The notes: generated by a model not told the origin, from the letters alone. Positions 5,491 through 62,096 are shown, counted from the stretch's first letter. The stretch is 64,000 bases of DNA from an uncultured Planctomycetales bacterium (GCA_964464475.1 CAYXGG010000001.1:87174-151173), one strand, 5' to 3'. Made by a program: numbers and translations.

Positions 5491-5527
5491 AAAAAGCCCT
5501 CAATAAAATATTTATTGAGGGCTTTTT
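5491..5527. terminator. Bidirectional intrinsic terminator between the cupin gene and rpoN
   Basis: AAAAAGCCCTCAATAAA-ATAT-TTATTGAGGGCTTTTT forms a perfect 14-bp stem flanked by A/T runs on both sides. Confidence 0.7.
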
Positions 5528-7175: not shown

Positions 7176-7191
7176 TGGCATATATTTTGCT
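7176..7191 (+). promoter_or_regulatory. Sigma-54 (-24/-12) promoter for the EPS operon
   Basis: TGGCAT-ATATT-TTGCT matches the consensus TGGCAC-N5-TTGCW with exact GG/GC spacing. It sits 99 bp upstream of the first EPS-operon gene, and rpoN is divergently transcribed. Confidence 0.65.
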
Positions 7192-13995: not shown

Positions 13996-14070
13996 TCGTG
14001 GTTTTAGTTTAGCTAAATAAAAGACAGCAAAACTAATTACCAAATAAGTTTGTGGAAAGGCAAAGTCATT

Positions 14071-19599: not shown

Positions 19600-20445
19600 A
19601 TGATTTCAGAAGTAGTCACTTATGTACCGGATAATTGCTTAAAGAAAGGTTATTTGGCCTTACTTAAAGAGATTGTTCAGGAGATTGTTAGAAATCGTTG
19701 GCTAACCTTACAGCTTTTTAAAAGAGATTTCTTTGCGTCGTACAAACAGTCGATCGTAGGCATCGTTTGGATTTTTGTTATGCCGTTATTTAATGTGGGG
19801 GCTTTCGTTTTATTAAACCAATCAGGTGTTTTTAATGTCGGAGAGGTTCCTGTTCCTTATCCTTTGTATGCCATTTTAAGTATGTCTTTGTGGCAAATTT
19901 TTGCCGGGGGTTTGATGGCCTGCAGTAGTTCATTAACTAACGCCGGAGACATGTTGACGCGGATTAACTTTAGTCGCAAATCATTGGTTTTTGCCGCCAT
20001 CGGACGTCCTATTGTTTCGTTGCTGATCCAATTTGGTTTAGTCTTTGTCCTATGTTTTTATTATCGGATCACGCCTCATTTAAACGCGATCTACCTTCCT
20101 TTTGTCTTTGTGGCCATTCTTTGTTTAACCGTTAGTTTGGGGATGATCCTGGCGATTCTCAACTCTTTGGTGAAAGATACAGGAAATCTTCTTTATATAT
20201 TATTGATGCTGCTGATGTATTTAACTCCGGTCCTTTATGCGAAACCCTTAAAAGGTCTTCTCGCTGTCATGACTCAATATAACCCAATGTATTATTTGCT
20301 TTCTGCCGGCAGAGATTTGTTTTTATGGGGGGAAATAAAAGAGCTGAATGCTTTTGTATGGGTTGTTTTGGGATCGATTTTACTATTCCTATTTTCTTTG
20401 GTTTTCTTTCATCTCAGTGAATCACGTTTAGCGGAGCGTATATAA
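19600..20445 (+). CDS. ABC-2 type polysaccharide exporter permease (Wzm-like), pair 2
   Basis: Six transmembrane helices with an ABC-2 motif (RDFFASYKQSIVGIVWIFVMP); paralog of the protein at 13210-13995. Confidence 0.75.
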   Translation: MISEVVTYVPDNCLKKGYLALLKEIVQEIVRNRWLTLQLFKRDFFASYKQSIVGIVWIFVMPLFNVGAFVLLNQSGVFNVGEVPVPYPLYAILSMSLWQIFAGGLMACSSSLTNAGDMLTRINFSRKSLVFAAIGRPIVSLLIQFGLVFVLCFYYRITPHLNAIYLPFVFVAILCLTVSLGMILAILNSLVKDTGNLLYILLMLLMYLTPVLYAKPLKGLLAVMTQYNPMYYLLSAGRDLFLWGEIKELNAFVWVVLGSILLFLFSLVFFHLSESRLAERI

Positions 20446-20448
20446 GCT

Positions 20449-21675
20449 ATGAATTCGAACATCGCTATCAGCGTTGAAGGGGTCTCCAAGAAATTTTGTC
20501 GTTCTTTGAAGCGATCCATGGCTTATGGGTTAACCGACATAGGGAGGAATCTTTTGGGATGTTCTTCTCTCCCAGCTAAGGAACGAAAAGAAGAATTTTG
20601 GGCGGTAGATAACGTTTCTTTTCAAATCCAACGAGGAGAATCTTTTGGCTTGATTGGACCAAATGGTTCAGGCAAGACCACTTTATTAAAGATGCTTAAC
20701 GGAATTTTCTGGCCGGATCGTGGTCGCATTGAAATGAGGGGGCGGGTAGGGGCTTTGATTGCCGTAGGCGCGGGTTTCCATCCGATGTTGACGGGACGAG
20801 AAAATGTTTATATTAATGGCGCCATCCTGGGGATGAACAAAAGAGAGATTGACCAAAAATTTGACGCCATCGTGGATTTCGCAGACATTGGAGAATTTAT
20901 CGATGCCCCCGTTAAACACTATTCGAGTGGTATGTTTGTGCGTTTAGGATTTGCCGTGGCGGTTCACGGTAATCCGGAAGTGTTGTTGATTGATGAAGTC
21001 TTGGCGGTAGGAGATAAAGATTTTCAAATGAAGTGTTATCGTAAGATTAACGAAATCCGAACGCAGGGAACAACCGTTATTCTTGTCGCGCATAATGAGT
21101 ACACTATTAGAGAATACACTAACCGCTGCGCGTATTTAAATCATGGTAAAGAGCGGTTTATTGGGTCAAGCGAAGAAGGCATATCGTTGTATATGCGCGA
21201 TATTTTAGAACTTAAGTCAAAGCAAGAAAAGAAGTCAAATACACCTGGCTTTGTTCGTTCTTCTCAATCGCAGCTATTGCCGGTTAAGTTCCTGGATGCG
21301 CAAGGTCGTCAGATTGATTTCCTTGAATCGGGGCAAGAATTAAACATTTTATTTGAATGCGTGCTTGATAAAGAAGTCCAGAATCCGGTTTTTGGCGTTA
21401 ATTTTTATGACAATGCGGGTTTTATGTACTGTGTTAACAGCAGTTATGAAGGGTTTAGTATCCCGGATGCTATCAATGGGCATGTGCGTATAAAAATTCA
21501 AATCCCCCATTTGCATTTACCGATGAATAATTATTTAGTCTCTACCATTATCGCTGAAGGAAATCCTGATAATTTGCTTGATTGGCACGACCGGGAATAT
21601 CGATTTGTGGTGGGACGGGCAGAAAATGCTCGTGGTTCAATAAAGCTTCCAACGCTTTGGAGTGTTGAAAAATGA
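20449..21675 (+). CDS. ABC transporter ATP-binding protein (Wzt-like) with a C-terminal extension, pair 2
   Basis: Walker A GPNGSGKTT, signature YSSGMFVRL, Walker B LLIDEVLAVGD, and a C-terminal ~160-aa domain. Confidence 0.85.
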   Translation: MNSNIAISVEGVSKKFCRSLKRSMAYGLTDIGRNLLGCSSLPAKERKEEFWAVDNVSFQIQRGESFGLIGPNGSGKTTLLKMLNGIFWPDRGRIEMRGRVGALIAVGAGFHPMLTGRENVYINGAILGMNKREIDQKFDAIVDFADIGEFIDAPVKHYSSGMFVRLGFAVAVHGNPEVLLIDEVLAVGDKDFQMKCYRKINEIRTQGTTVILVAHNEYTIREYTNRCAYLNHGKERFIGSSEEGISLYMRDILELKSKQEKKSNTPGFVRSSQSQLLPVKFLDAQGRQIDFLESGQELNILFECVLDKEVQNPVFGVNFYDNAGFMYCVNSSYEGFSIPDAINGHVRIKIQIPHLHLPMNNYLVSTIIAEGNPDNLLDWHDREYRFVVGRAENARGSIKLPTLWSVEK

Positions 21676-43104: not shown

Positions 43105-44303
43105 TGCGTGTGCTTTTTTTAGCGCCCCGTTTACCGATACCGGCAGACACCGGGGGTAAAATTCGGACGCTCAATATACTTAAACAGATGACGAAGTGGG
43201 CTCAGGTGCATTTGGCATGTTTTTCTTTTGATGCCGCTGACAAAGAGCATGTTCCTTCTTTAGCTAGGTTAGGAGTAGAGGTTACTTTAGTCCCTTTGGG
43301 TGAATCATCTTTCTTGCAGAAAGTGTTAGGGGTGGTCATCGCTCCTTTGCCATTTTCGATTGGAAAATACAATTCGGCCCAAATGGTTGAAGCGCTTAAA
43401 GCGCTGAGAGTTCATCAGGGTTTCGACGCGGTGCATATCGATCATTTACATATGGCACATTATCGCTCTTTGTTTGACGGATTACCGACGGTGATGGATG
43501 AACACAATGTGGAGTACATGATTTTAAATCGTTGTGCTAAGGTTGAGAAAAAGTTGGCGAAGAAAATTATTTATGAACAACAAGCCGGCAAAATGAAAGC
43601 TTTTGAGAAAAAACAAGCGTCAGCGTTTAGTCGGGTCCTGGCGGTATCTCAGGATGATCGAAAGATTTTGCTTGAGTTAAACGATGCTCAAGTTCCGGTG
43701 GAAGTGATCCCTAATGGAGTGGATACGGATTTCTTTCAGTCAGAGCCGCAACGATATGCCTCTGAGAAGGCTATTGTTTTTACGGGTTCCTTGGATTGGC
43801 TGCCTAATGAAGATGCGGTAGTGTGGTTTGGTAACGAAATTTTACCTCTTATTTGGCAGCAAATGCCTGAAGTGAAGTTTTATGTAGTAGGAAAATCTCC
43901 TTCGCCACAAATTCTGGCTCTACAGCATAAGGATGCTCGGGTGATCGTTACCGGGCGGGTGGATGACGTTCGACCGGTCATGGATAAGGCTCAGGTTTTT
44001 GTTTGTCCTATTCGGGTTGGGGGAGGGACGCGTTTAAAGATCCTTGAAGCCATGTCGATGAAGAAAGCGGTTGTTTCGACGACCATTGGGGCCGAAGGTA
44101 TTGCTCATACCAATGGCAAGAATATTATTCTGGCGGATGATGTTTCGTCCTTTGCCGAGGCGACGCTAAAATTGTTGCGAGATCCGGCGGCCTGCGTGAA
44201 GCTTGGGGCCGCCGGTCGTGAACTAGTCACCGGTCAATATGATTGGAATTTTGTCGGACGAACGTTAAGCGTGATTTATCATGAACTCATCGCGGGTCGT
44301 TAG
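43101..44303 (+). CDS. Glycosyltransferase family 4 (PEP-CTERM/exosortase-associated sugar transferase Stp1-like)
   Basis: The N-terminus (RVLFLAPRLPIPADTGGKIRTLNILK) matches the Stp1-type start; GT-B fold. Confidence 0.7.
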   Translation: MMRVLFLAPRLPIPADTGGKIRTLNILKQMTKWAQVHLACFSFDAADKEHVPSLARLGVEVTLVPLGESSFLQKVLGVVIAPLPFSIGKYNSAQMVEALKALRVHQGFDAVHIDHLHMAHYRSLFDGLPTVMDEHNVEYMILNRCAKVEKKLAKKIIYEQQAGKMKAFEKKQASAFSRVLAVSQDDRKILLELNDAQVPVEVIPNGVDTDFFQSEPQRYASEKAIVFTGSLDWLPNEDAVVWFGNEILPLIWQQMPEVKFYVVGKSPSPQILALQHKDARVIVTGRVDDVRPVMDKAQVFVCPIRVGGGTRLKILEAMSMKKAVVSTTIGAEGIAHTNGKNIILADDVSSFAEATLKLLRDPAACVKLGAAGRELVTGQYDWNFVGRTLSVIYHELIAGR

Positions 44304-45861
44304 ATGCTTGGTCTTTTTATTAGGAATGGTCGTCGGGGCAGGTTGCGCGGCGATAGGAGTATATAAATTATATAAAATTTACAAACATAGAAAAGTAACC
44401 TCCCAGTCCTATCGGGATGCCTCACAGTCGGTTGCTGAACATTGTGCCGAGTATCAATTAAATTTAGAAGTCGACGCGCGAAAACCCCTCCATAAGATTA
44501 GTCCACTGCTGTATGGCTCTAACCTAACTCCCAAAACGGAATACGAGAAAGACGTTATTGATTTAAGTAAAGAATTAGGAATTACGAATTTTCGTTTCCC
44601 TGGCGGCGAATCCAATGGTTATCGTTGGCAAACCGGTGATTTTGATTTTGACGATCGTTTAGATGACGCGCCGCTGTCAGATTTAGAACATGTAATTGAA
44701 TTTGTTAAGATGGGTGGCCAATCTTTAGTTATCCAAGTCAATCTAGAATCGGGGACGCCTCAGGAAGCTGCGGAATGGGTGAGGCGCATGAATAAGGTTA
44801 GCGGCTTTAGAGTTGACTATTGGGAAATCGGCAATGAGCCCTATGGGGATTGGGATCGGGCTTTCCGTTCTCCAGAAGAATATGCGGCCAACATTAGAGA
44901 TTATGCCAGGGCCATGAAAGCTGTTGATCCTACCATCAAGATTGGTGCCAGTTTAGGGGGACCCAATTATCCAGTTTTTGATCGAACCGTCATTAAAGAA
45001 GCTGGAGATTTCTTTGATTTTATTTCTTATCATTGGTATCCCAATCATACGAATAAAAACACGCCCTACTTAAATCGTTTGCATCCCTTGCCGGAAGAAG
45101 TGATGGCTAATGGGTTGGCGATTGAGCCTTTGGTAAAAAGATTCCGGCGTTTAATTGCGCGGTATGCTCCGCAGCGTGTGGACAAGATTGACATCGGTAT
45201 CCTGGAGTGGGATGGTTCTTGGGATGGCGCTGCTTCGGACCTGAATTTTGAATATAAAGGTGAAATGTGGGCGCTATCTAACGCAATCTTTTTTGCTGAT
45301 GCGTTAGGTCTGATGGCGACCCAGCAAGTGGTGTTGGCCAATCAATATTCTTATCAAGAAGTCATGCATGGCCTTATTCGCGGATGGGATCGGAAGGCCG
45401 GATGGGGTGGTAGTCGTTGGGATGGTCAGACGATCCGTCCTAAAGGCTTGGCTTTTCAATTGTTGGCTCGCTCATTTGGAAATGAGTTGCTCAGAAGTCA
45501 TTTGAGTGGCTCGCCAGCCTACAATAAAGAAACCGATTGGCGGGCAGATTCTTTTGTCGGGAAGGTTCCCTACGTGACGGCTTATGCCAGTCAATATTCG
45601 CACAACAAGAAGGTCGCAGTGCTGATTGTTAATAAGCATAGCTCCTGTGAGTTTGCCGTTAATTTAGAGGTCCAGGGGGGTAAGCTGGGGAACCTAGCAA
45701 GCTGGCAAAAGATTACCGGGCCAACGTTATCCGCTCAGAACGATGGGGCTCCCGGGACAGTTATGATCGCGCCGGGAGATGTTGCTGAACAAAAAATTCC
45801 CTCTCAGTTGAAAATTGCTCCACGATCCATAAATTTATTTGAGCTAAATTTAGAAAAATGA
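44281..45861 (+). CDS. Membrane-anchored glycoside hydrolase (clan GH-A TIM barrel; PslG/GH39-GH5-like EPS glycanase)
   Basis: N-terminal transmembrane anchor. WEIGNEPYGDW carries the catalytic acid (NEP). The (beta/alpha)8 pattern is about 480 aa. Confidence 0.6.
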   Translation: MNSSRVVRCLVFLLGMVVGAGCAAIGVYKLYKIYKHRKVTSQSYRDASQSVAEHCAEYQLNLEVDARKPLHKISPLLYGSNLTPKTEYEKDVIDLSKELGITNFRFPGGESNGYRWQTGDFDFDDRLDDAPLSDLEHVIEFVKMGGQSLVIQVNLESGTPQEAAEWVRRMNKVSGFRVDYWEIGNEPYGDWDRAFRSPEEYAANIRDYARAMKAVDPTIKIGASLGGPNYPVFDRTVIKEAGDFFDFISYHWYPNHTNKNTPYLNRLHPLPEEVMANGLAIEPLVKRFRRLIARYAPQRVDKIDIGILEWDGSWDGAASDLNFEYKGEMWALSNAIFFADALGLMATQQVVLANQYSYQEVMHGLIRGWDRKAGWGGSRWDGQTIRPKGLAFQLLARSFGNELLRSHLSGSPAYNKETDWRADSFVGKVPYVTAYASQYSHNKKVAVLIVNKHSSCEFAVNLEVQGGKLGNLASWQKITGPTLSAQNDGAPGTVMIAPGDVAEQKIPSQLKIAPRSINLFELNLEK

Positions 45862-47369: not shown

Positions 47370-47397
47370 TTGACAACTGGAGGAGGGGTGCTATACT
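47370..47397 (+). promoter_or_regulatory. Sigma-70 promoter driving the riboswitch leader
   Basis: TTGACA-N16-TATACT. Confidence 0.5.
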
Positions 47398-47439
47398 TTC
47401 GGCTGAAAGAAGTTCTCGATCTTTAAATAGCTGACTGAT

Positions 47440-47580
47440 ACTAGTAAACCATTCGGAAGAGTGGGACACAAAGCTAACCATGCTTTCTAGAGGTTCTTAA
47501 GGAAGCAGGTGCTCCAGTCCGTAGATGGCTGGAGTAGGGCCTAACCCCGTGTTGTGGATGTTGCCGGGCAGGTTGCCAGT
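47440..47580 (+). promoter_or_regulatory. Candidate c-di-GMP-I (GEMM) riboswitch aptamer
   Basis: GUAAACCAUUCGGAAGAGUGGGACACAAAGC reproduces the GEMM junction elements. These are the G-CAAA junction, a P2 hairpin CCAUUC-GGAA-GAGUGG with a GNRA loop, and GAC-ACAAAGC. It is followed by a CUCCAG...CUGGAGUAGG hairpin and a CCUAACC receptor-like element. From memory it closely resembles V. cholerae Vc2 (CAAACCAUUCGAAAGAGUGGGACGCAAAGCC). Confidence 0.45.
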
Positions 47581-47641
47581 TGCCAAAGCAGAGATAAGAT
47601 CGGTTAAATTAGCCGTTGTTAAGCTTTTAACTGATAATTGA

Positions 47642-47690
47642 CCTATTCTCAAAGGCGTGTCCATGTTCCGAGAGTAGGTTTTTTTATTTT
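47642..47690 (+). terminator. Intrinsic terminator (riboswitch expression platform)
   Basis: CCTATTCTC-19 nt-GAGAGTAGG followed by TTTTTTTATTTT, 54 bp before the ATG of the beta-helix gene. Confidence 0.55.
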
Positions 47691-47743
47691 ATGAGAAAAA
47701 ATTTCATCTATTCATTATCCAGGTTTCAGAAAGGGGTGCAACG

Positions 47744-50575
47744 ATGAGAAAAAACACAATAACAGTTCTTTTTCTGATGGGCTTTTGTTGGGGAGTGTCA
47801 GTTCCCTTAACGGAAGCGGCAACCTATTTTGTTCGACCAGATGGGGGTAACGCCACTCAGTGTACTGGTTTGAATGATGCCGCGTATCCAGGCAGCGGTA
47901 CCGCTCAAGCCTGTGCTTTAAATCACCCCTTTTGGGTGCTAGCTCCCAAGGGAAATAACCCATCCAAAATGCGAGGAGGGGATACCTTAATTATTGATGG
48001 TTCAAACAAAGCTCAATACATGATGGGTTGGGGAGCCCCCAATATTAACGATACGAGCATTTGTTATTCTGCATGGCCATGGGATTGTACGATGCGTCCG
48101 ATCCCTTCAGGTCCTGATCCGGCTCATCCTACCAGGATTTTGGGTAAGGGATGGGACACGGGTTGCGCCAATCCTCCTCAATTATGGGGTAAAGAAAAAG
48201 CATGGCATATTCTGACCTTGGCTGGAAGTAATAACGTAGAGGTCCAATGCTTGGAAATTACTGACCATGACCAGTGTCAATACTTGGGGCCTAATGGTTG
48301 TAATAACAGTAATGCCCCTTTTGGAAACTATGCGGTGATGGGTATTTTTGCCCAAGATAGTAATAATGTATTACTGAAGAATTTAAATATTCATGGTCTG
48401 CACACGGGTATAAAAGCAGGAAGAATTAAAGATTGGACCGTGGACAACACTAAAATCGTAGGGAACTCTTTTGTTGGCTGGAATGGTGATTTAGGCGGTG
48501 GAGTTAGTTCATCAAATTCAGGAACAATCACTTTTAATAAGAGTGTGATTGCTTATAGCGGTTGCGGTGAAACTTATCCGGGCAATCAACCGTATAACTG
48601 CTATAGCCAGGATCAAGGTGGCTATGGTGACGGTTTCGGAACAGAGAAAACGGGCGGAAACTGGATATTTAACAATGTGGATTTTAGCCATAATGTTTCC
48701 GATGGTTTAGATCTTCTTTATCATGATGGCAATGGTTCAATAACCATTAAACGGTCTCGATTTGAGGGCAATGCAGGAAACCAAGTTAAAACGGCGGGAA
48801 GTGCTGTAATAGAGAATTCGCTGTTGGTTGGAAATTGTGGTTACTTTAAAGATAAAGCATTCACTTATTCGGTCGGTGGTTTTAACCATTGTCGTGCCGC
48901 AGGCTCGACCTTAGCCGCTTTATTTTTCACCGGGAGCAAAGTCAGCTTGATGAATTCAACTCTTACCGGAAATGGTGACTCATTGATTATTTCTTCAGGA
49001 TCTACCTGTAATGGGACAGAATCCTTTACCTCAAGAAATAATATTATACTCGGTGGCACGGAATTCAACGATGGGGCCGACCTTAGCTCGTTGTATTATG
49101 CAACTGGAGCTATGGGAAATGGTGATGGGCCATGTGGAGCTGTTCAATTTGTGGACGCAGGTTCTGTATATTGGAACATAAAGAACCAAGTCAATGTTTG
49201 TGCCCAAAGACCGGGTTCTAAATGTGCTGATCCAAAATTTATTGGTCCAGTTGTTAAATATTTTTCTGGTGATGCTTATAATTTAGCTTTGAACGCAGAT
49301 AGTCCTGCGCGTAGTTTTGCCCAGGAATTAACTGGTATGTCGACGTTGGATTATAATAATTTTGACCGTGGATCAGATTGGGATTCGGGTGCTCTGGAAT
49401 ATGGCTCTGTATCTACCGTTGCGGCCGCCAGTATCTGTGGGAATAAATTAGTCGAGTATCCTGAGCAGTGTGATGACGGTAATTTAGTCAACGGTGATGG
49501 ATGTAATGCCTCATGCATCATTGAATCGCCTTCTGTCCCAGTGTGTGGTAATAAGGTTAAAGAAGGATCTGAACAATGTGATGACGGTAATCTAACGAAT
49601 GGCGATGGATGTAATAATGTTTGTCAAATCGAAGTGGCATCGCCGGTTTGTGGAAACGGTAAATTAGAGAGTTCAGAGCAGTGTGATGACGGCAACGTTT
49701 TAAATAATGATGGATGTAGCAGCGTTTGCCAGGTAGAGATTCTATCTGTTTGCGGTAACGCGAAGCTTGAGAGTGGTGAGCAATGCGATGATGGTAATAA
49801 GGTAAGTGGTGATGGGTGCTCTAGTTCTTGTGTAAGAGAGTTACCCATTTGCGGAAATGCTAAGTTGGAAGGTTCAGAGCAGTGTGACGATGGTAACTTA
49901 ATTAGCGGAGATGGGTGCTCTAGTTCTTGTGTGAAAGAGCTGCCGGTCTGTGGTAACGCGAAGCTCGAGAGTGGTGAGCAGTGCGATGATGGAAATAACA
50001 CCAATAATGATGGTTGCTCAAGCTCTTGTTTAAAAGAGAGTTTACCAGTCTGCGGAAATGGCATTAAAGAAGGAACCGAGGTTTGTGACGACGGCAACCT
50101 AGTGAGTAATGATGGCTGTAATAGCATTTGCAAAGCGGAATGGTGTGGTAACGGTATTAAAGAAGGACCGGAGCAATGCGATGATGGCAACTGGATTAAT
50201 CGGGATGGTTGCAGCGCATTGTGTATTTTGGAAAGTGTTAAACCAGTTTGCGGAAATGGAAAAAAAGAAGGAACCGAAGCTTGTGACGATGGAAATTTGG
50301 TGAGTAATGATGGGTGCTCAAGTAGCTGTAGTATTGAGCAAACACCTATCCCTGTGTGCGGAAATGAAAAGATAGAATCCCCTGAAACGTGCGATGATGG
50401 TAATAGAACTAGTGGGGATGGATGTAGCAGCAGTTGCCAAAAAGAGGTGGTAACGACCAGGCCGGTTTGTGGTAACGGTAAGTTGGAAGGTTCAGAACAG
50501 TGCGATGATGGTAACCGAGTCAGCGGTGACGGATGTAACCGCTATTGCAAAAAGGAGAGAATAAGAACCAGGTAA
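47744..50575 (+). CDS. Secreted 943-aa protein: N-terminal right-handed parallel beta-helix (pectate-lyase-like) domain plus 13 tandem cysteine-rich repeats
   Basis: Signal peptide (MRKNTITVLFLMGFCWGVSVPLTEA). Asparagine/glycine-rich beta-helix rungs with NNV repeats. About 565 aa of CGNxKxExxEQCDDGNxxxGDGCxxxC repeats (Myxococcus cysteine-rich repeat type). No PEP-CTERM tail. Confidence 0.8.
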   Translation: MRKNTITVLFLMGFCWGVSVPLTEAATYFVRPDGGNATQCTGLNDAAYPGSGTAQACALNHPFWVLAPKGNNPSKMRGGDTLIIDGSNKAQYMMGWGAPNINDTSICYSAWPWDCTMRPIPSGPDPAHPTRILGKGWDTGCANPPQLWGKEKAWHILTLAGSNNVEVQCLEITDHDQCQYLGPNGCNNSNAPFGNYAVMGIFAQDSNNVLLKNLNIHGLHTGIKAGRIKDWTVDNTKIVGNSFVGWNGDLGGGVSSSNSGTITFNKSVIAYSGCGETYPGNQPYNCYSQDQGGYGDGFGTEKTGGNWIFNNVDFSHNVSDGLDLLYHDGNGSITIKRSRFEGNAGNQVKTAGSAVIENSLLVGNCGYFKDKAFTYSVGGFNHCRAAGSTLAALFFTGSKVSLMNSTLTGNGDSLIISSGSTCNGTESFTSRNNIILGGTEFNDGADLSSLYYATGAMGNGDGPCGAVQFVDAGSVYWNIKNQVNVCAQRPGSKCADPKFIGPVVKYFSGDAYNLALNADSPARSFAQELTGMSTLDYNNFDRGSDWDSGALEYGSVSTVAAASICGNKLVEYPEQCDDGNLVNGDGCNASCIIESPSVPVCGNKVKEGSEQCDDGNLTNGDGCNNVCQIEVASPVCGNGKLESSEQCDDGNVLNNDGCSSVCQVEILSVCGNAKLESGEQCDDGNKVSGDGCSSSCVRELPICGNAKLEGSEQCDDGNLISGDGCSSSCVKELPVCGNAKLESGEQCDDGNNTNNDGCSSSCLKESLPVCGNGIKEGTEVCDDGNLVSNDGCNSICKAEWCGNGIKEGPEQCDDGNWINRDGCSALCILESVKPVCGNGKKEGTEACDDGNLVSNDGCSSSCSIEQTPIPVCGNEKIESPETCDDGNRTSGDGCSSSCQKEVVTTRPVCGNGKLEGSEQCDDGNRVSGDGCNRYCKKERIRTR
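49438..50565 (+). repeat. Thirteen imperfect tandem DNA repeats (about 114-120 bp) encoding the cysteine-rich modules
   Basis: Near-identical units recur, e.g. ggtaacgcgaagctYgagagtggtgagcaRtgcgatgatgg at about 49747 and 49955, and gatgggtgctctagttcttgtgt at 49811 and 49911. Confidence 0.85.
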
Positions 50576-50589
50576 TACTCCTTACCCCG

Positions 50590-50634
50590 CGCCCGGGAGA
50601 AGCTCCCCCCAGCTTCTTCCGGGCGATTTTTTTT
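50590..50634 (+). terminator. Intrinsic terminator after the beta-helix gene
   Basis: CGCCCGGGAGAAGCT-CCCCCC-AGCTTCTTCCGGGCG then ATTTTTTTTT. Confidence 0.8.
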
Positions 50635-50658
50635 AGGTTGAATGGCTGTATTATGGCT

Positions 50659-50686
50659 TGACAATACTTAATTCGGCTTTGATAAT
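50659..50686 (+). promoter_or_regulatory. Candidate sigma-70 promoter for the pilin-like/exosortase operon
   Basis: TTGACA-N16-GATAAT. It lies only about 12 nt before ATG 50699, so the transcript would be nearly leaderless. Confidence 0.3.
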
Positions 50687-50698
50687 TAAAAATTAATT

Positions 50699-51109
50699 AT
50701 GGTCGGTCCAAATTGCAAATTTAGTACTCATCCTTTTAAAAGAACTGGTTTTTCGCTTGTTGAATTATTAATTTCCGCGTTTGTTCTAAGCGTTGGAATC
50801 GCGGGAACGCTTATGTTCTTTACTTCCGCTTTGATTTCAGCAGATTTTGCTTTAGAGACTACTTTGGCTACATCTCATGCCGAGTTGATATTTGAAGAAA
50901 TGCGCTCCAAGGAAGCAATCCAAGAAATTACTTTTGTTGATTGGAATGAGTGGTTAAAAAAGCAGGATGTTAGCTTATTGCCCGAAGAGGCGGTTGAAAT
51001 TTCATATCTTGATCCAGCGAAAAGTCCTTTCCCCGTCAGCATGAAGGTTTCCTGGAGAGGGCGAGCCAGAATTCAAACCCAGGAATTTTATACTACTTTT
51101 ATTAAATGA
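50699..51109 (+). CDS. Prepilin-type N-terminal cleavage/methylation domain protein (minor pilin/pseudopilin-like)
   Basis: KRTGFSLVELLISAFVLSVGIAGTLMFF matches the G-F-[ST]-L-[IV]-E class-III signal peptide. Confidence 0.65.
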   Translation: MVGPNCKFSTHPFKRTGFSLVELLISAFVLSVGIAGTLMFFTSALISADFALETTLATSHAELIFEEMRSKEAIQEITFVDWNEWLKKQDVSLLPEEAVEISYLDPAKSPFPVSMKVSWRGRARIQTQEFYTTFIK

Positions 51110-51591
51110 ATTTTATTCGTCAGAAGCGAGCTTATACATTAATTGAAGTGTTAGTTAGTATCGCTATTTTTTCATTCATTCTGATGGCGCTTTATCAAAT
51201 GTTTGCTGTTGGTAATCGCTCCTGGGCTAACTATAACGAAAAGGTCGCTTTGCAGCGGGAGATTCGTTGGTCCATGTACGCCGTAGTCAAAGAGTTAAGA
51301 GAAGCCAAAAACATTTTTGTTACGGATGATTCTGAGAAAGTAAAAATTGCTTTTAAGAAAGACAATTTAGGAAGCTTTGCTTTCGTTTTTATGAAAACTG
51401 GGCAACAGAGAAATAAATTATTTTTCGAGCGACCTAATCAAAAGCGGGTTCTCTCTAGCAGTGTAACAAATCTTAAAGTAGATCAAATCAGTAAACACCT
51501 GATAGAAATTGAAATTACGGGAATGAAGCAGCCGTTGTTTTCCAAATTGATTACTTTTAAGCTAAAGCAACGGATTCTTCTTAGGAACTAA
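51106..51591 (+). CDS. Prepilin-type N-terminal domain protein (pseudopilin-like, variant Ala at the cleavage site)
   Basis: QKRAYTLIEVLVSIAIFSFILMAL. Start overlaps the previous stop (ATGA). Confidence 0.6.
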   Translation: MNFIRQKRAYTLIEVLVSIAIFSFILMALYQMFAVGNRSWANYNEKVALQREIRWSMYAVVKELREAKNIFVTDDSEKVKIAFKKDNLGSFAFVFMKTGQQRNKLFFERPNQKRVLSSSVTNLKVDQISKHLIEIEITGMKQPLFSKLITFKLKQRILLRN

Positions 51592-51596
51592 ATTTC

Positions 51597-52751
51597 ATGA
51601 TTTGCTCTCAAATGAAAAGAAGTCGATTGCGTAACGAACGAGGGTCTATATTAATTTTTGCTTATTTTTTGTTGGCTTTTCTCGTGACGTTATCGGCGGG
51701 TTTTGCTTTAACCAATTTTGGAGAATTAAATGATAGTCGGCGCTATTTGAATTCGGTAAAGGCGTTTTGGCTTGCGGAAGCGGCACTTAATGAGTATTTG
51801 CAAGAGCCAGAAATATTAGACGGTTTTCGTCAGAAGACATTGGAATATCCTGGGGGGCAGGTTGTTTTGCAAAAAGATGATTCTCAGCCCATGCTGCGAA
51901 TTCTTACGGCAAAAGCTAATGTGAGTGGCAGCGAACGTGAAATTACGATGGAATTCCCAGCACATGCACCGGAAGTTTTTAATAATACTATTTCTGCTCG
52001 CGGGGACATAGACTTAAGTGGCAGTAAGATTTCAGCCACTTTTACCGGTAAAACAAAAGTAAGCGGAAAGTTAAGAAAATCATATAAATTCGGTAGTGCA
52101 ATTTTTGAAGATTTAAGTGAGAACGTTGATAAGAATTTGGTGACGATGTTTTACCCGGACGCTAATAATAATGGTGTTGTTGATGAATTCGATGATTTTG
52201 TGGCTATTAATCGTAATATTATCGAGAATTATTCTTCTGATGAGGTGGTTTATTTGCGAGGCAATGATACATTTACGGTGGTCCCCGATGCTAAGCTGGC
52301 GGGTAAGAAAATTTTATATGCCGAGGGTACTAAGAGTGGAAAGGGAAGTGTCGTGATTCAGTTTACCGGAGAACTTAATCCAGAAGAAAATCTTACGGTG
52401 ATTTCCACCGGAACGGTAAGCTTTAATCAGTTGGGAGGGCAGACCGACTCGCAGTTAAATATTATTGCCTGGGAAGGGTATCGAGAGATGGCCACGTTGC
52501 CAGGAGAGCATAAGGGCATTACCTACACGCATGGGAGTGCCGTTATCGATCGAATTCATGAAGAATCTGTTTCGCATGGAATTTTGGTCGCTCACAGTGG
52601 CGTTTCGGTGAAAGAAATTTGGGCGAATAAGCTTTTTCAATACGCTGATCCTCGAGTCAAAGGGCTAATCCCTCCTGGTTTTGAAGGTATGATTGGCGGG
52701 AAGCTTTCGGCTGGATACTTGTCGGAGCCGAGTGTCTGGAGGGAAAAATAA
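51597..52751 (+). CDS. PilX-N-like minor pilin/pseudopilin-associated protein
   Basis: NERGSILIFAYFLLAFLVTLSAGFA resembles the PilX_N domain, with a ~330-aa beta-rich C-terminal part. Confidence 0.5.
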   Translation: MICSQMKRSRLRNERGSILIFAYFLLAFLVTLSAGFALTNFGELNDSRRYLNSVKAFWLAEAALNEYLQEPEILDGFRQKTLEYPGGQVVLQKDDSQPMLRILTAKANVSGSEREITMEFPAHAPEVFNNTISARGDIDLSGSKISATFTGKTKVSGKLRKSYKFGSAIFEDLSENVDKNLVTMFYPDANNNGVVDEFDDFVAINRNIIENYSSDEVVYLRGNDTFTVVPDAKLAGKKILYAEGTKSGKGSVVIQFTGELNPEENLTVISTGTVSFNQLGGQTDSQLNIIAWEGYREMATLPGEHKGITYTHGSAVIDRIHEESVSHGILVAHSGVSVKEIWANKLFQYADPRVKGLIPPGFEGMIGGKLSAGYLSEPSVWREK

Positions 52752-52752
52752 T

Positions 52753-53295
52753 ATGATCCGAAATCCCTGGGTGTGGGGCGCGGCATTTCTTCTTGTATTT
52801 TTAGGCTTTGGTTCTTTAAATCGATGGGTTAGCCATAAGATGCAGCGGAATTTGGGGTCTGCTGTGATTGCGAATTCAGAATTGAAAGAATCTAAAAAAC
52901 AAGATGGATTTATGCAGCTTCCTTTAGATTTTGCAAGCTGGAACATTTTGCCTGGAAAAAAGGCGGATGACCCCGCTAAATTCGGAATTATTGTCTCAAA
53001 AGATGCCTCGCATAATAACGTGGCTCAATGGGAGCAGGGTGCCAAGAAATCTATGCAAGGGGTCAGATCAATCTCTACGGTCGGTGAAGTCAAAGACAAA
53101 GATAAGGTTAAGATATCTTTGTCTTTGGAAGAATATCAGCAAAAGGTTAATCTTATTAATTTGGAGATTGAATCCGTTGAGTTAGAATTAGAGAGTATGC
53201 CCAGCGATCCGGAATTGCTTTCTAAATTGCAAGGTTTGACGATAATGAAGGCGACGCTAGAGTCATTAAAAAACAAAATTATTTCAAAGTTGTGA
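52753..53295 (+). CDS. Small bitopic membrane protein with a C-terminal coiled coil
   Basis: One transmembrane segment (WVWGAAFLLVFLGFGSL) and a heptad-repeat tail. Start at ATG 52753; the tracked ORF has an upstream out-of-frame-neighbour extension. Confidence 0.45.
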   Translation: MIRNPWVWGAAFLLVFLGFGSLNRWVSHKMQRNLGSAVIANSELKESKKQDGFMQLPLDFASWNILPGKKADDPAKFGIIVSKDASHNNVAQWEQGAKKSMQGVRSISTVGEVKDKDKVKISLSLEEYQQKVNLINLEIESVELELESMPSDPELLSKLQGLTIMKATLESLKNKIISKL

Positions 53296-56172: not shown

Positions 56173-56188
56173 TGGCACAAAATTTGCT
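56173..56188 (+). promoter_or_regulatory. Sigma-54 (-24/-12) promoter
   Basis: TGGCAC-AAAAT-TTGCT matches the consensus perfectly, 47 bp upstream of ATG 56235. Confidence 0.7.
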
Positions 56189-56234: not shown

Positions 56235-57059
56235 ATGAGTCGATATACTAAATTAATATTTTTGAGCATATTAGCAATTTTGACCGTGGTAAGTACTGTT
56301 TTTGCTATACCGGTTAAATCTGATGACGCTAGGGAAGTCATAGAAGAGGCAAGGATTTCTCAAATTCCGGCTCAGTTGCCAACAGATTCGAAGTCTAGAG
56401 CTCCGGAGCCCACGTCCATGGCGCTTTTTGGGAGTGGTATATTGGGGATGGTTGTCAGTTTCTTTCGTCGTACCTATATTTTGATAAAGAGAGCATTTGA
56501 TGTTTTTGCTGCGATCCTAGGTTTGCTGTTCTTGGCGCCGCTTTTTGTTATTGCCGCTTTCTTGATAAAATTTACTTCAAAAGGGCCAATTATTTATAAG
56601 CAAGTTAGAGTTGGAAAAAACGGTAAGCTTTTTGAAATTTATAAATTTCGTTCAATGCGTACGGATGCTGAAAAAGATAGTGGCCCTGTTTGGGCTAAAG
56701 CCAACGATAATCGTCTCATCCCGCCGGGAAAATTTTTAAGAAAAACCCGAATTGATGAATTACCTCAATTTATTAATGTTCTAAAAGGTGATATGAGCTT
56801 GATCGGGCCTCGTCCGGAGCGACCTGTTTTTGTTGAGAAATTTAAAGAAGTTATTCCTGACTACGAGAAGCGTCTGGCCGTCAAACCTGGGATTACGGGA
56901 TTAGCTCAAGTGTGGCATAAATATGATGAAACGATTGAGGATGTTAAAAAGAAAATTCGTTATGATTTGGTTTATATTAAAAAAGTCAATTTGTGGACTG
57001 ATTTAGGAATATTTTTTAGAACATTTCGAGTTGTTATTACTGGTCAAGGCGCTCAATAA
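56235..57059 (+). CDS. Bacterial sugar transferase (polyprenyl-phosphate phosphoglycosyl transferase, small WbaP/PglC type) with an in-frame N-terminal signal peptide plus PEP-CTERM-like motif
   Basis: Residues 1-79 form a signal peptide and ...SRAPEPTSMALFGSGILGMVVSFFRR (PEP, a transmembrane helix, then RR). This runs without a stop into IKRAFDVFAAILGLLFLAPLF...GPIIYKQVRVGKNGKLFEIYKFRSMR...GPRPERP, the sugar-transferase core. A TTG at 56481 would give a typical MIKRAFD start but has no ribosome-binding site. Confidence 0.7.
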   Translation: MSRYTKLIFLSILAILTVVSTVFAIPVKSDDAREVIEEARISQIPAQLPTDSKSRAPEPTSMALFGSGILGMVVSFFRRTYILIKRAFDVFAAILGLLFLAPLFVIAAFLIKFTSKGPIIYKQVRVGKNGKLFEIYKFRSMRTDAEKDSGPVWAKANDNRLIPPGKFLRKTRIDELPQFINVLKGDMSLIGPRPERPVFVEKFKEVIPDYEKRLAVKPGITGLAQVWHKYDETIEDVKKKIRYDLVYIKKVNLWTDLGIFFRTFRVVITGQGAQ

Positions 57060-59384: not shown

Positions 59385-60700
59385 AAACTACTTCTGCTCA
59401 ACATTCTGAAGAGATGCTTTTGGGAAAGCCCAATGCTTTTCAAAAAGTCAGCGACATTTGTTCCGGTGTTAATTCGGTCAAAGACGAAAACGAGTTGCTG
59501 ACTCAGAATCTGGGTCAACTCTTAGAGCTATTCTCAGCCAGGAGGGGCTCGATATTTATTTTTAATGCCCGGCGAAAAGAGTTGGATCTTAAGGTATCTA
59601 AAGGAATGGCTACAGCTGAACAGAAACATTTGGTCAAGCGTATGGGGGAGGGAGTGGTTGGGAAAGTTGCAGAATTGAAGCAGCCAATTGTGGTTGATGA
59701 TATCTCTAAGGACGATCGGTTTCATAATTATCATGCTCGGGGAAGTTATCGTTCACCTTCTTTCATTTGTGCTCCTTTGTTGTTAAAAGATCAGTTGTTG
59801 GGAGTCATTAGTATCGCAGACAAAGTATCTGGACAGAGGTTTAGTAAAGATGAATTGCTTTTGCTCGACTTTTTGTCGAGTCAGATAGCCTTGAATTATA
59901 AACGGATAAAGTTATATAAGAAATTCAGAAATGTTATTAAAGAGGCGCAAAGTTTAAAGAACGCTTTGGGAAAAAAGTCCGATGAGGCTAATCAGCTCAG
60001 AAAACAGATCGTTGTTCAAGAAAAGTTTGCTTCTATTGGTAAATTGGCGGGTGGAATCGCGCATGAGTTTAATAATCCACTTGACGGGGTTATTCGATAC
60101 ACGAATCTTTCTTTAGAACATCTGAAGAATGATGATGTTGTTCGTGGGTATCTGTTGGAAATAAGGCAAGGATTGCATCGAATGGCCAATATTGTTAGGA
60201 ATTTATTGGCTTGTTCCCGAAATACTCAGGCAAGTATGCAAAAGGTTGATGTGAATCATCGAATTGAGCAGGTCGTGAATGGACTGCAGTCAGATTTTTT
60301 TATGAAGGGAATTAATTTGCGGAAGGATTTCTCTAAAGATATTCCGCTGGTCGTTGATTTAGGGTTAGACTTGATTTTCTCTAATTTACTAAGAAATGCT
60401 ATTGATGCGGTAAAATCAGGCGGTACTATAAAAATATCTACAAGGTTTGCTCAAGAAGTTCTTACTATCCGAGTTGAGGATAATGGATGCGGGATTCCCT
60501 CCGAAATGATGGAGCAGATATTTGAACCATTCTTCACCACTAAGGATATCGAGAAGGGGTGCGGTTTGGGTTTAACAATTGTAGATGAGATTGTCAAAAG
60601 TTATGGCGGGCGTATCCATTTGGAGAGTGCGCCGGATAAAGGAACGGCTTTTACGATCACATTACCAGCGAAGGTATCTACTTATGCAAAAAAACACTAA
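59381..60700 (+). CDS. Cytoplasmic GAF-domain sensor histidine kinase (PrsK-like position)
   Basis: GAF domain (GVVGKVAELKQPIVVDDISKDDRF). HisKA with the phospho-accepting His in GGIAHEFNNPL. HATPase_c N/G boxes (LRNAIDA, DNGCGIP, GCGLGL). No transmembrane segments. Confidence 0.8.
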   Translation: MKTTSAQHSEEMLLGKPNAFQKVSDICSGVNSVKDENELLTQNLGQLLELFSARRGSIFIFNARRKELDLKVSKGMATAEQKHLVKRMGEGVVGKVAELKQPIVVDDISKDDRFHNYHARGSYRSPSFICAPLLLKDQLLGVISIADKVSGQRFSKDELLLLDFLSSQIALNYKRIKLYKKFRNVIKEAQSLKNALGKKSDEANQLRKQIVVQEKFASIGKLAGGIAHEFNNPLDGVIRYTNLSLEHLKNDDVVRGYLLEIRQGLHRMANIVRNLLACSRNTQASMQKVDVNHRIEQVVNGLQSDFFMKGINLRKDFSKDIPLVVDLGLDLIFSNLLRNAIDAVKSGGTIKISTRFAQEVLTIRVEDNGCGIPSEMMEQIFEPFFTTKDIEKGCGLGLTIVDEIVKSYGGRIHLESAPDKGTAFTITLPAKVSTYAKKH

Positions 60701-62096
60701 CAATCATCTTCATATTTTGATTGTCGATGATGAGCCTTTGATACGTCAATCATTGTTTGAAAGTCTGAGGATTGAAGGTTTTCAAGCCACGATGTCGAGT
60801 AATGGCGAAGATGCCTTGGAAAAGTTAAGAAATAACAAAGTAGATATTCTATTAACTGATTTAAAGTTGCCCAAAATGTCCGGTATTCAATTGTTAGAGA
60901 AAGTTAAAAAAGACTACCCGCAAATTGAGGTGATTTTGATTACGGGATTTGGAACGATCGAGACGGCTGTTGAAGCGATGCGTAAAGGCGCTTACGACTA
61001 TATTACTAAGCCAATAAATGACCAAGAGGTGCGTTTGATTTTGCAGAAAATTGTGGAAAAGAAACAGATTCTGCAAGAAAACCAAGATTTAAAGAAAATT
61101 ATTGATAGAACGACGCCTAATTCATTTTGTAGTTTAGTCGGTCGCAGCGAGAAAATGCAGAAAGTTTATCAGATCATTGAATCAGTGGCGAGCACAAATG
61201 CGACTATATTAATTAATGGGGAGAGTGGCACGGGTAAAGGAATGACGGCTAACGCTATTCATCAAAGCGATCGACTCCGCGGCGATAAGCCATTTGTAGA
61301 GGTTAGTTGTGGGGCTTTATCGGAAACTTTGTTGGAAAGTGAGCTGTTTGGTCATGTGAAAGGGGCGTTTACGGGTGCAATTAAGGATAAGGAGGGGCGT
61401 TTTGAATTTGCCAAAGGGGGTACCATCTTTCTCGATGAAATTGACGCCTTTTCGCCTAATTTGCAGGTTAAGTTATTGAGGGTTCTTCAAGATGGGGTTT
61501 TTGAAAGAGTGGGGGATAATAAAACGCGCCACGCGGATGTGCGAATTATTGTGGCTACTAACCAAAATCTAAATGAATTGGTCGCGAAGGGGAAGTTTCG
61601 AGAGGATTTGTATTATCGCATTAATGTCATTGCCATTCCTTTGCCACCCTTAAGAGAGCGTCGGGATGATATTGAGTTTTTAGCCAAATTCTTTATTGAG
61701 AAATACAGTAAAATTAATCGTAAGTCTGTGTCTGGGCTTTCATTGGAAGCTTTGGATCTTTTTAAGGGGTACCATTGGCCTGGAAATGTTCGAGAGCTCG
61801 AAAATGCTATTGAGGGTGCTGTTATTATGGCCAAAAAAGAAATAATTCAAAAAGAGGATATTCCATCTGTTAATCGGATGTTGGAGGGGTATGGCGCTCG
61901 CTCGGCGATGGTTGGTTCGAGTTCAGATTTGGATCAATCTCTGAAGAAAAATTTAGAAACACCTGAGAAAGAACTTATTCTTGCAGTGTTAGAAGAATGT
62001 CGCTGGAATAGAAATAAGGCTGCTGAAAGGTTAGGAATTAATCGGACCACGTTGTATAACAAAATGAAGAAGTACAATATATCTTTTGATAAATAA
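60684..62096 (+). CDS. Sigma-54-dependent response regulator (NtrC family; PEP-CTERM-box regulator PrsR-like)
   Basis: Receiver domain (ILIVDDEP...D in DLKLPKMSG). AAA+ Walker A GESGTGKG, the GAFTGA motif and the ESELFGH arginine-finger region. C-terminal Fis-type helix-turn-helix (RWNRNKAAERLGINRTTLYNKMKK). Start at internal ATG 60684; the upstream part of the tracked ORF is an out-of-frame extension into the kinase gene. Confidence 0.85.
   Translation: MQKNTNNHLHILIVDDEPLIRQSLFESLRIEGFQATMSSNGEDALEKLRNNKVDILLTDLKLPKMSGIQLLEKVKKDYPQIEVILITGFGTIETAVEAMRKGAYDYITKPINDQEVRLILQKIVEKKQILQENQDLKKIIDRTTPNSFCSLVGRSEKMQKVYQIIESVASTNATILINGESGTGKGMTANAIHQSDRLRGDKPFVEVSCGALSETLLESELFGHVKGAFTGAIKDKEGRFEFAKGGTIFLDEIDAFSPNLQVKLLRVLQDGVFERVGDNKTRHADVRIIVATNQNLNELVAKGKFREDLYYRINVIAIPLPPLRERRDDIEFLAKFFIEKYSKINRKSVSGLSLEALDLFKGYHWPGNVRELENAIEGAVIMAKKEIIQKEDIPSVNRMLEGYGARSAMVGSSSDLDQSLKKNLETPEKELILAVLEECRWNRNKAAERLGINRTTLYNKMKKYNISFDK

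Follow-up and report, generated by a model that had tools for sequence, protein, structure and literature searches.

Layout of the Locus

The window analysed here is a 64,000-nucleotide (nt) stretch of DNA from an uncultured bacterium (GCA_964464475.1, CAYXGG010000001.1:87174-151173). Its plus strand contains an open reading frame (ORF) at 47744..50575 that, by the ORF call, encodes a protein of 943 amino acids (aa), and this gene and its leader are the subject of the present analysis. The protein combines a signal peptide, a beta-helix domain and an array of cysteine-rich repeats, and probably represents a polysaccharide-modifying enzyme under riboswitch control. The spacer of 456 bp upstream of the ORF contains, in this order, a putative promoter, an aptamer, a hairpin followed by U7, and a Shine-Dalgarno-like site with the ATG; it lies outside the interval described in an earlier, sequence-only reading of this DNA. 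The features of the unit are the following:

47370..47397, + strand, putative sigma-70-type promoter, TTGACA-16 nt-TG-TATACT, 11/12 matches in a consensus scan
47433..47590, + strand, divergent aptamer of the GEMM-I (c-di-GMP-I) type, from Rfam, orthologue alignment and covariation
47478..47535, + strand, 58-nt insertion of two hairpins in the second helix domain of the aptamer, from orthologue alignment
47642..47685, + strand, intrinsic terminator of the leader (expression platform), arms CCUAUUCUC and GAGAGUAGG followed by U7, -13.3 kcal/mol in RNAfold
47730..47736, + strand, Shine-Dalgarno-like AAAGGGG, 7 nt 5' of the ATG, read directly from the sequence
47744..47818, + strand, Sec-type signal peptide, residues 1-25, cleavage predicted from the sequence at TEA/A
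47819..49435, + strand, right-handed parallel beta-helix domain, residues 26-564, from AlphaFold2 (AF2), Foldseek and conservation
49436..50548, + strand, eleven DUF4215/TIGR02232 cysteine-rich acidic repeats, residues 565-935, from motif count, family models and charge
50549..50575, + strand, basic C-terminal tail KKERIRTR (net charge +4) and stop codon, from the sequence
50590..50634, + strand, strong intrinsic terminator after the gene, 15-bp stem with 10 GC pairs and T8, from a sequence scan
50658-50686, + strand, promoter-like site ahead of the pseudopilin-like gene at 50699

The N-terminus of the protein, MRKNTITVLFLMGFCWGVSVPLTEA/ATYF, has the form of a Sec-type signal peptide. Residues 2-18 are modelled as a helix by AF2, and the hydrophobic N-terminal segment is also kept in the orthologues. 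This agrees with the sequence-only reading, which took the protein to be secreted, with the site of cleavage remaining a prediction. A lipoprotein was considered and ruled out, as the residue preceding the cysteine in the signal peptide is a phenylalanine and a lipobox is therefore lacking. No transmembrane or hydrophobic segment was found in the 943-aa protein after the signal peptide, the KKERIRTR tail being non-hydrophobic. A PEP-CTERM tag is likewise missing, with no match of the protein to PF07589 or TIGR02595, so that both the family models and the sequence of the tail bear out the earlier statement that there is none.

Basic C-terminal tails were surveyed in the C-termini of proteins P0001-P0060 and in loci L004, L005, L007, L011, L015, L020 and L081. 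They are enriched in Omnitrophota homologues, in which at least three Lys/Arg residues occur among the last 12 positions in 22 of 46 cases, compared with 2.8% expected, and they are rare outside this phylum (3/22 homologues). In Omnitrophota homologues with C-terminal extensions the tails are often rich in Trp or Phe, as in KKPNWMRFFTKK, KRGWYWWRKN and LWRKMLRWFSGG. The basic tail may serve in retention or sorting, as a signal of a type not described before.

The Beta-Helix Domain

Residues 26-564 are confidently predicted to adopt a right-handed, pectate-lyase-like beta-helix. The AF2 model of the region of residues 1-564, computed with an alignment of 86 sequences, has a predicted local distance difference test (pLDDT) value of 94.5 and a predicted template modelling (pTM) score of 0.92, and consists of a long series of short strands. 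A search of the PDB with Foldseek revealed 26 matches at E<=1e-3, essentially all of them right-handed beta-helix proteins, the best being the pectate lyase Pel9A (1ru4; E=1.2e-7). Further matches include GH136 lacto-N-biosidases, AlgE4/6 epimerases, PL6, PL9 and PL31 lyases, GH110, the lyase RbmB that acts on Vibrio polysaccharide, and phage depolymerases. The structure prediction thus supports the pectate-lyase-like N-terminus that had been proposed from the sequence. No Pfam or NCBIfam family, PF13229 included, matches this part of the protein.

The domain shares the right-handed parallel beta-helix fold with Pel9A and other beta-helix lyases, glycosidases and epimerases (RbmB, AlgE4/6, AlgG, PL6, GH110, GH136). 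It differs from them in sequence, with an identity of 8-14% and template modelling (TM) scores of 0.42/0.57, in its lack of membership in a sequence model, and in being disulfide-rich, with 16 cysteines. Nine residues, namely D174, D249, D296, D320, D323, H217, H327, K349 and R384, are invariant among the 86 sequences, which are 42-68% identical. Homologues of the domain are numerous: a word-indexed search found at least 1,785, and an exhaustive search gave 991 clusters at 50% identity, 557 of them with E<=1e-30.

A second group of relatives is formed by the 'choice-of-anchor Q' or right-handed beta-helix repeat proteins (NF041518, PF13229). In members of the family with 46-57% identity, NF041518 matches where the beta-helix ends, and many of the members match PF13229; homologues P0087, P0091 and P0093 reach 40-51 bits with NF041518 (cut-off 25), and PF13229 (Beta_helix) is found in about half of the homologues listed. 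Across the family, a single passenger domain is joined to varied C-terminal modules, which comprise the C-terminal domain of the type IX secretion system, dockerin, PKD/Ig, Thr-rich linkers and DUF4215. By contrast, the window protein itself matches neither model, with no match to PF13229 at E<=1 and none to NF041518, a model of 58 residues, at E<=10 in residues 1-564.

Other arrangements of the domain were observed among the homologues. Many (P0012, P0014, P0015, P0026-P0029, P0033, P0034, P0037, P0039 and P0043) end in another conserved Cys-rich module, ...C..LGF.GGTLGC...CQFNL.GCK, in place of DUF4215. Tandem beta-helix paralogues occur in some Omnitrophota genomes (L009, 4714-9817; L015, 975-8114; P0007 and P0008 on one contig of 21.8 kb) and, where examined, are preceded by a riboswitch at the first gene only. 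Protein P0242 (1691 aa) contains two copies of the beta-helix domain.

The Cysteine-Rich Repeat Array

The domain is followed by 11 repeat units, as counted by pattern, which start at 49436, 49544, 49649, 49751, 49850, 49949, 50051, 50144, 50249, 50357 and 50468 and have a period of 31-37 aa (93-111 nt). The core motif CDDGN...DGC is present in 11/11 units, and each unit contributes 4 cysteines to a total of 44 in the array. Both family models find the same number of stretches: PF13948 (DUF4215) matches in 11 with 244.7 bits (cut-off 27; E=5.6e-74), and TIGR02232 (cysteine-rich acidic repeat) in 11 with 403.3 bits (cut-off 20.8; E=7.2e-124). By its sequence, the array is a member of the known DUF4215/TIGR02232 repeat family, far above chance. 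The sequence-only reading, which had recommended a search with the Myxococcus cysteine-rich repeat model, was right about the family, and its description of the array has to be corrected in several respects. It had counted thirteen modules of about 38 aa with six cysteines each, although its own consensus also contains four, and had let the array run to the very C-terminus; the repeats do extend nearly to the end, the last unit stopping 8 residues before it, where the KKERIRTR tail follows.

The array is strongly acidic, with a net charge of -42, a pI (isoelectric point) of 4.05 and a charge of -3 to -5 in each unit. The AF2 model of the array (pLDDT 81.5, pTM 0.26) has one small beta-hairpin per unit and no helices. 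Its confidence dips at the linkers, and the orientation of the units to each other is not fixed; in the model, the array is a beads-on-a-string arrangement. No relative of the array was found in the PDB, either by sequence or by fold search.

DUF4215 arrays are abundant, with at least 7,000 matches, and are fused to many extracellular domains, among them malectin, PPC, vWA and CARDB. The present array resembles the proteins with 'Myxococcus cysteine-rich (acidic) repeats' in its motif CGNG-x5-E-x-CDDGN-x4-DGC-x3-C, its 4 cysteines per unit, its acidity, its tandem arrangement and its extracellular location. It differs from them in its fusion to an uncharacterised beta-helix family, and in that the basic tail takes the place of MYXO-CTERM, PEP-CTERM or another sorting tag. 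Binding of Ca2+ by the CDDGN...DGC core and electrostatic binding of de-N-acetylated polysaccharide by the array are plausible, as pure conjecture. An antisense ORF of 188 aa at 49624-50190, for which independent support was lacking, was dismissed as a by-product of the codon composition of the repeats.

A GEMM-I-Type Riboswitch in the Leader

The aptamer was detected by the Rfam model RF01051 at 47433-47587 with 32.6 bits (E=1.3e-4), below the gathering score, which is 35. Taken by itself the match is doubtful; it is credible because orthologous loci carry matches above the gathering score at the same position. In 7/9 syntenic orthologous loci, matches to c-di-GMP-I or c-di-GMP-I-GGC with 44.8-72.2 bits lie directly upstream of the gene, and the window aptamer aligns end to end with the orthologous aptamers. 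A custom covariance model built from eight sequences places the element ahead of the gene in 16 Omnitrophota loci, of which eight lie outside the training set and have scores of 25-85 bits; the same model never found it next to the beta-helix gene in other phyla. In the alignment, the two canonical hairpins have 97.2% of cells paired and 7 pairs with compensatory changes. The covariation score is 0.388, compared with 0.178 for shuffled alignments (0/500 reach the observed value) and at most 0.103 for slid controls, in an alignment that was fitted to the model and hence favours the structure.

The score of the window copy falls below the threshold because of the 58-nt insertion. At this site or close to it, the aptamers of L008 (5002-5142), L011 (454-594), L007 (7702-7835), L015 (960-1082) and L003 (7690-7860) contain insertions of 42-82 nt, so that 6/16 aptamers bear one. 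The insertion of the window and those of L008 and L011 differ in sequence, and both fold as two hairpins. The insertion looks like a recurrent accessory domain, and is the reason that Rfam under-scores the copies that contain it.

With the GEMM-I riboswitches Vc2, Vc1-gbpA and Bc1 the window element has in common two hairpins, a tetraloop of the GNRA type (here GGAA), the presumed counterparts of the A47 and 3' GCC contacts, an intrinsic terminator downstream, and a location ahead of a gene for a secreted protein of the matrix or colonisation type. It departs from them by the 58-nt insertion, an adenine at position 20 and the score below gathering. The ligand contacts in Vc2 are G20, A47 and C92, and the 27-nt spacing between G20 and A47 is also found in Vc1 (G12/A39) and Bc1 (G11/A38) (PMC4744006, PMC11218506). 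Through this spacing, G20 was mapped to position 11 of the model and A47 to position 38. The equivalent of A47 (47470) and the invariant 3' AGUUGCC are kept in the window aptamer; the equivalent of G20 (47443) is an A in the window only and a G in the 15 other Omnitrophota copies.

The G20A variant of Vc2 binds c-di-GMP (cyclic di-GMP) at 53 nM, whereas the wild type does so at picomolar concentrations, and binds cGAMP (cyclic GMP-AMP) at 120 nM (PMC6140456). Natural A20 variants constitute the cGAMP-sensing GEMM-Ib class (PMC6140456), and the adenine by which this class is recognised is found at 47443, a likeness of the window copy to that subclass. Judged by its sequence, the window aptamer may be a sensor of lower or retuned affinity, or may be partly decayed. 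We consider it distinctly unlikely that it is a GEMM-I variant of retuned specificity, either bispecific or responsive to 3'3'-cGAMP in place of c-di-GMP. If this were true, the lineage would have shifted the control of an enzyme of the polysaccharide matrix from c-di-GMP to another cyclic dinucleotide, and the window would hold the first case beyond the GEMM-Ib examples of the Geobacter/Clostridia type, in an uncultured nanobacterial phylum.

The terminator hairpin of the expression platform is present in 14/14 orthologous leaders examined, and the sequence of its 5' arm, CCUAUUCU, is conserved. In 10/14 leaders the best alternative partner of this arm is the same site of the aptamer, nt 23-34, and the alternative duplex has an energy of -11 to -12.4 kcal/mol, compared with -7.5 +/- 1.8 kcal/mol for shuffled aptamers. 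Minimum free energy folds of the whole leader are inconsistent between orthologues. With the 5' arm of the terminator paired alternatively to the aptamer, ligand binding would favour termination, and an OFF switch is weakly favoured on the basis of these models.

An identical TTGACA/TG-TATACT site precedes the aptamer of L001 by about 40 nt, and the second promoter, ahead of the pseudopilin genes, is also conserved in L001. As promoter, aptamer, terminator, ORF and terminator follow one another, the gene appears to constitute a riboswitch-gated transcription unit of its own. The riboswitch, which the sequence-only reading had overlooked, is the best single pointer to the function of the gene.

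Two further matches to RNA families were encountered. A match to TYMV_upPK in the leader (E=0.45) was attributed to chance. In an Anaerolineae metagenome-assembled genome (MAG), a GEMM-I-like element at 411-538 of L028 scores 39.6 bits with the custom model, is located 7.5 kb from the beta-helix gene and is unrelated to it.

The Surrounding Exopolysaccharide Locus

The gene lies within a single exosortase-type exopolysaccharide (EPS) locus on the plus strand, which spans approximately 7.5 to 62 kb of the window. The locus encodes a Wza-like exporter, a chain-length determinant, an EpsE-like AAA protein, a kinase-like ATPase, two Wzm/Wzt pairs, sugar-nucleotide enzymes, more than 12 glycosyltransferases, Wzy, an acetyltransferase, two deacetylases, the exosortase EpsH, EpsI, a priming sugar transferase and tetratricopeptide repeat proteins. 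It also includes a PrsK/PrsR-like pair of a kinase and a sigma-54 activator (60585-62096), and RpoN is encoded upstream of it at 5526-6893 on the minus strand.

Synteny was assessed in 81 fetched loci. The closest orthologue, from the Candidatus Omnitrophota MAG GCA_023247725.1, resides in a fully syntenic locus, and the order deacetylase, beta-helix, two pseudopilins, the unk384 protein, GT2, EpsH, EpsI and transferase is conserved in 11 Omnitrophota loci. Approximately 60 loci from other phyla, Anaerolineae and Myxococcota among them, encode this beta-helix domain with 42-50% identity and lack the block. The conserved exosortase/EPS context supports the EPS-related role that had been suggested earlier for the protein.

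Considering the presence of RpoN and its activator in the window, a sigma-54 promoter was sought for the beta-helix gene, and none was found upstream of it. Looser sigma-54 matches occur at chance level across the window (24 found, 26.5 expected). A perfect -24/-12 element, TGGCACAAAATTTGCT, is located at 56173-56188 on the plus strand and precedes the priming sugar-transferase gene (56235) by 47 nt, and a copy of it with one mismatch is found at 7176-7191 (+), upstream of the gene for the Wza-like protein (7489). The priming sugar transferase itself (56235-57059, +) matches Bac_transf and TIGR03025 above cut-off and has a PEP-CTERM-like motif near its N-terminus, at residues 56-79; a pattern scan of the window revealed no ORF with a C-terminal PEP-CTERM tag.

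Two genes upstream of the beta-helix gene, 44281-45861 (+) encodes a membrane-anchored, glycoside hydrolase-like protein of 526 aa. It has an ArfA-like match that is below cut-off (E=3e-23) and a weak match to GH39 (E=0.005), and its counterpart in L001 matches GH123; the locus may thus encode a second glycan-cleaving enzyme. Pairs of ATP-binding cassette exporters of the Wzm/Wzt type, each with a Wzt C-terminal domain, are found at 13210-15321 and 19600-21675 (+) alongside Wzy and the Wza-like protein, and more than one route of glycan export may be encoded.

Proposed Function of the Protein

We consider it fairly probable that the gene encodes a second-messenger-gated, Sec-exported, EPS-modifying beta-helix enzyme on an acidic disulfide stalk. 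Its parts are each of a known kind: the beta-helix domain is carbohydrate-active-like, the repeats form a DUF4215 array, and the leader element is of the GEMM-I riboswitch class. The enzyme would be exported by the Sec pathway and would cleave or modify a glycan, probably the EPS made by the surrounding locus of this Omnitrophota bacterium. Its catalytic part would be the disulfide-rich beta-helix of approximately 540 aa, and the 11 DUF4215 units with the short basic tail would form the stalk that carries it, strongly acidic and knotted by disulfides. The stalk would be an interchangeable spacer or anchoring module outside the catalytic machinery, because orthologues at the same position have in its stead fewer units, Thr-rich linkers or other domains. 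In the leader of approximately 340 nt, the GEMM-I cyclic-dinucleotide aptamer followed by the conserved intrinsic terminator would gate expression in cis, the level of the second messenger deciding whether RNA polymerase enters the ORF. With an OFF switch, the enzyme would be made at low c-di-GMP, as would suit remodelling of the matrix or dispersal. The analysis itself establishes the ORF with its repeats and fold, the synteny, and the conservation of aptamer and terminator; that the protein acts catalytically on EPS and is exported past the inner membrane, the function of the stalk and the direction of the switch are what we infer from these features.

The assignment as an enzyme is supported by the solved structures that match best, almost all of which are carbohydrate-active beta-helix enzymes, Pel9A and RbmB included. 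RbmB and AlgG are encoded within the biosynthetic cluster of the polymer on which they act, as the window gene would be. Several observations weigh against this interpretation, in its catalytic as well as in its regulatory part. The Foldseek TM-scores given above are modest, and the adhesin PfbA is also among the matches (E=2e-4). Membership in a CAZy-type family is not demonstrated by sequence, since residues 1-564 have no Pfam/NCBIfam match. A single-sequence search of the PDB with the beta-helix domain was empty, and a profile search returned one stretch of 40 residues of GH110 (E=0.013), which is not usable. Part of the invariant residues may be structural, as members of an Asn ladder, Gly turns or disulfides, and no UDP-sugar (uridine diphosphate-sugar) dehydrogenase was seen in the window, which leaves a lyase without an evident uronic-acid substrate. 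As to the riboswitch, the Rfam scan at gathering level gave no match for the window aptamer, G20A together with an A-to-U change in GGUAGCC possibly weakens or retunes it, and the z-scores of the alternative pairing are only -2 to -3.

The most serious alternative is that of a non-catalytic surface adhesin or matrix scaffold, whose beta-helix would bind a glycan or surface in the manner of PfbA, whose DUF4215 stalk would hold it out from the cell or cross-link the matrix, and whose riboswitch would tie adhesion to the biofilm signal. The structural match to PfbA is consistent with it, and so are the many binding domains to which DUF4215 is joined and the naming of homologues as 'choice-of-anchor' surface proteins. 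DUF4215 repeats are also part of a diatom adhesive-trail protein (bioRxiv 10.1101/2023.03.06.531300), and GEMM-I riboswitches precede adhesin and colonisation genes, for example Vc1-gbpA (PMC4744006). The top fold matches, however, are enzymes. Moreover, the invariant set of Asp, His, Lys and Arg residues is kept across phyla despite wholly different C-terminal modules and contexts, and resembles an active site more than a binding face. An adhesin is unlikely on this evidence.

Downstream Pseudopilin Genes

Directly downstream of the beta-helix gene, a set of four genes at 50699-53295 (+) is conserved in 11 Omnitrophota exosortase loci. The first two, Pil1 and Pil2, encode prepilin N-methylation motifs and have weak PilV-like and GspJ-like matches. 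The third, unk384, encodes 384 aa with a pilin-like hydrophobic N-terminus and a faint match to TadE/G (E=0.2), and the fourth, unk200, encodes 200 aa. All pilin-family matches of the set are below the curated cut-offs.

The beta-helix protein could in principle be the cargo or a tip-associated subunit of this pseudopilin cassette, exported or displayed by a type II secretion system or a type IV pilus-like fibre and not by the exosortase system. The prepilin motifs, the weak matches to PilV, GspJ and TadE/G and the order beta-helix, Pil1, Pil2, unk384 shared by the 11 loci point in this direction. Type II secretion systems in Dickeya export folded, disulfide-bonded pectate lyases, which counts for the same view. 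Against it stand the terminator and promoter between the beta-helix gene and the pseudopilin genes, the lack of a secretin, ATPase or platform gene in the window, and the sub-threshold nature of the pilin-family matches; furthermore, the whole block from deacetylase to priming transferase is conserved, so that adjacency is unspecific. We regard a pseudopilin-dependent protein as very unlikely.

Age and Copy Number of the Repeat Units

The sequence-only reading had described the units of the array as almost identical in DNA, and had concluded that the array expanded or contracted recently and is variable in length between strains. The units do not bear out the first point. Identity between their 81-nt cores in DNA is 51-83% (median 62%), and Tandem Repeats Finder detected only units 4-6 (period 99, 69-71% matches), which characterises the array as degenerate in DNA. 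The pairs that had been singled out, 49747/49955 and 49811/49911, do exist and are short. The longest exact word common to two units has 23 nt (49811/49910), and the most alike pair, units 4 and 6 (49751/49949), is 83% identical.

Codon identity at positions at which two units have the same amino acid is 45.2%, compared with 46.7-49.5% expected from the codon usage of the gene. No pair of units has an excess of codon identity after correction for multiple testing, the pair of units 4 and 6 having a nominal P of 0.009 and a Bonferroni value of 0.51. As codon identity is at the expectation from codon usage, the resemblance of the units in DNA is fully accounted for by conservation of the protein. 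Synonymous sites are equally saturated between the window and the closest orthologue (0.37 observed, 0.42 expected). At the protein level, the terminal unit of P0007 matches unit 8 at 100% identity and that of P0025 matches unit 11 at 93%; both proteins are from other species, and no other unit of the window array is as close to unit 8 or unit 11. Because these two units match units of other species best, the units are older than the splits between the species, and the claim of a recent expansion or contraction in the window array does not hold.

The number of units varies within the family. Syntenic orthologues at the same position have 11, 6, 5, 3, 3 or 0 DUF4215 units, and otherwise a Thr-rich linker or another domain. 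The closest orthologue, P0002, has 763 aa and 5 units, and its 90% cluster includes P0241, with 835 aa and 7 units. The two proteins are identical except for an exact tandem insertion of two units (72 aa) in the array, and their contigs share the gene layout, with identical coordinates upstream and all downstream genes displaced by +216 nt. The difference between 5 and 7 units is either a polymorphism within a population or an assembly collapse. In the beta-helix gene of L012 (Omnitrophota nzgw301), the adjacent units 2 and 3 have the same DNA sequence (100% identity, exact word of 104 nt), and this duplication is truly recent. Copy number in the family is NEVERTHELESS dynamic, and the window array is without a recent event. 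Variability in length is therefore real for the family (0-11 units, the versions with 5 and 7 units, and L012), whereas the DNA evidence that had been cited for it in the window fails.

It follows that a contingency-locus-like array in the window, recently expanding or contracting, prone to recombination, variable between strains and tuning the length of the stalk, is highly improbable: the orthologues with 0-11 units, the otherwise identical contigs with 5 and 7 units, the identical units of L012 and the possibility that identical units collapse in short-read assemblies, which would make 11 a minimum, speak for it, but near-identical units of the kind seen in L012 are not found in the window, where the divergence of the units, the 23-nt limit on common words, the saturation of synonymous sites (0.452 observed, 0.467-0.495 expected) and the closer kinship of units 8 and 11 to those of other species contradict it, the 5- and 7-unit versions may be an artefact of assembly, and all relatives available for comparison are at most 68% identical, none above this value having been found in the collections searched, and the contig index lacks the exact protein. 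The impression of a 'near-identical repeat' can come purely from a strongly conserved peptide motif.

Significance

The value of the locus lies in a conserved circuit of riboswitch, enzyme and EPS locus in Omnitrophota, together with natural variants of the aptamer, and not in a hypervariable repeat. The large insertions and the G20A change are such variants, of use for riboswitch biochemistry. DUF4215 behaves here as a C-terminal stalk or anchor, one among several modules that can replace each other, and its copy number shifts on long timescales and, in certain relatives, has done so very recently. How the uncultured Omnitrophota build and remodel their surface is little understood; the locus offers a compact, testable circuit that, if the enzyme reading holds, would join second-messenger signalling to matrix processing without a protein regulator.

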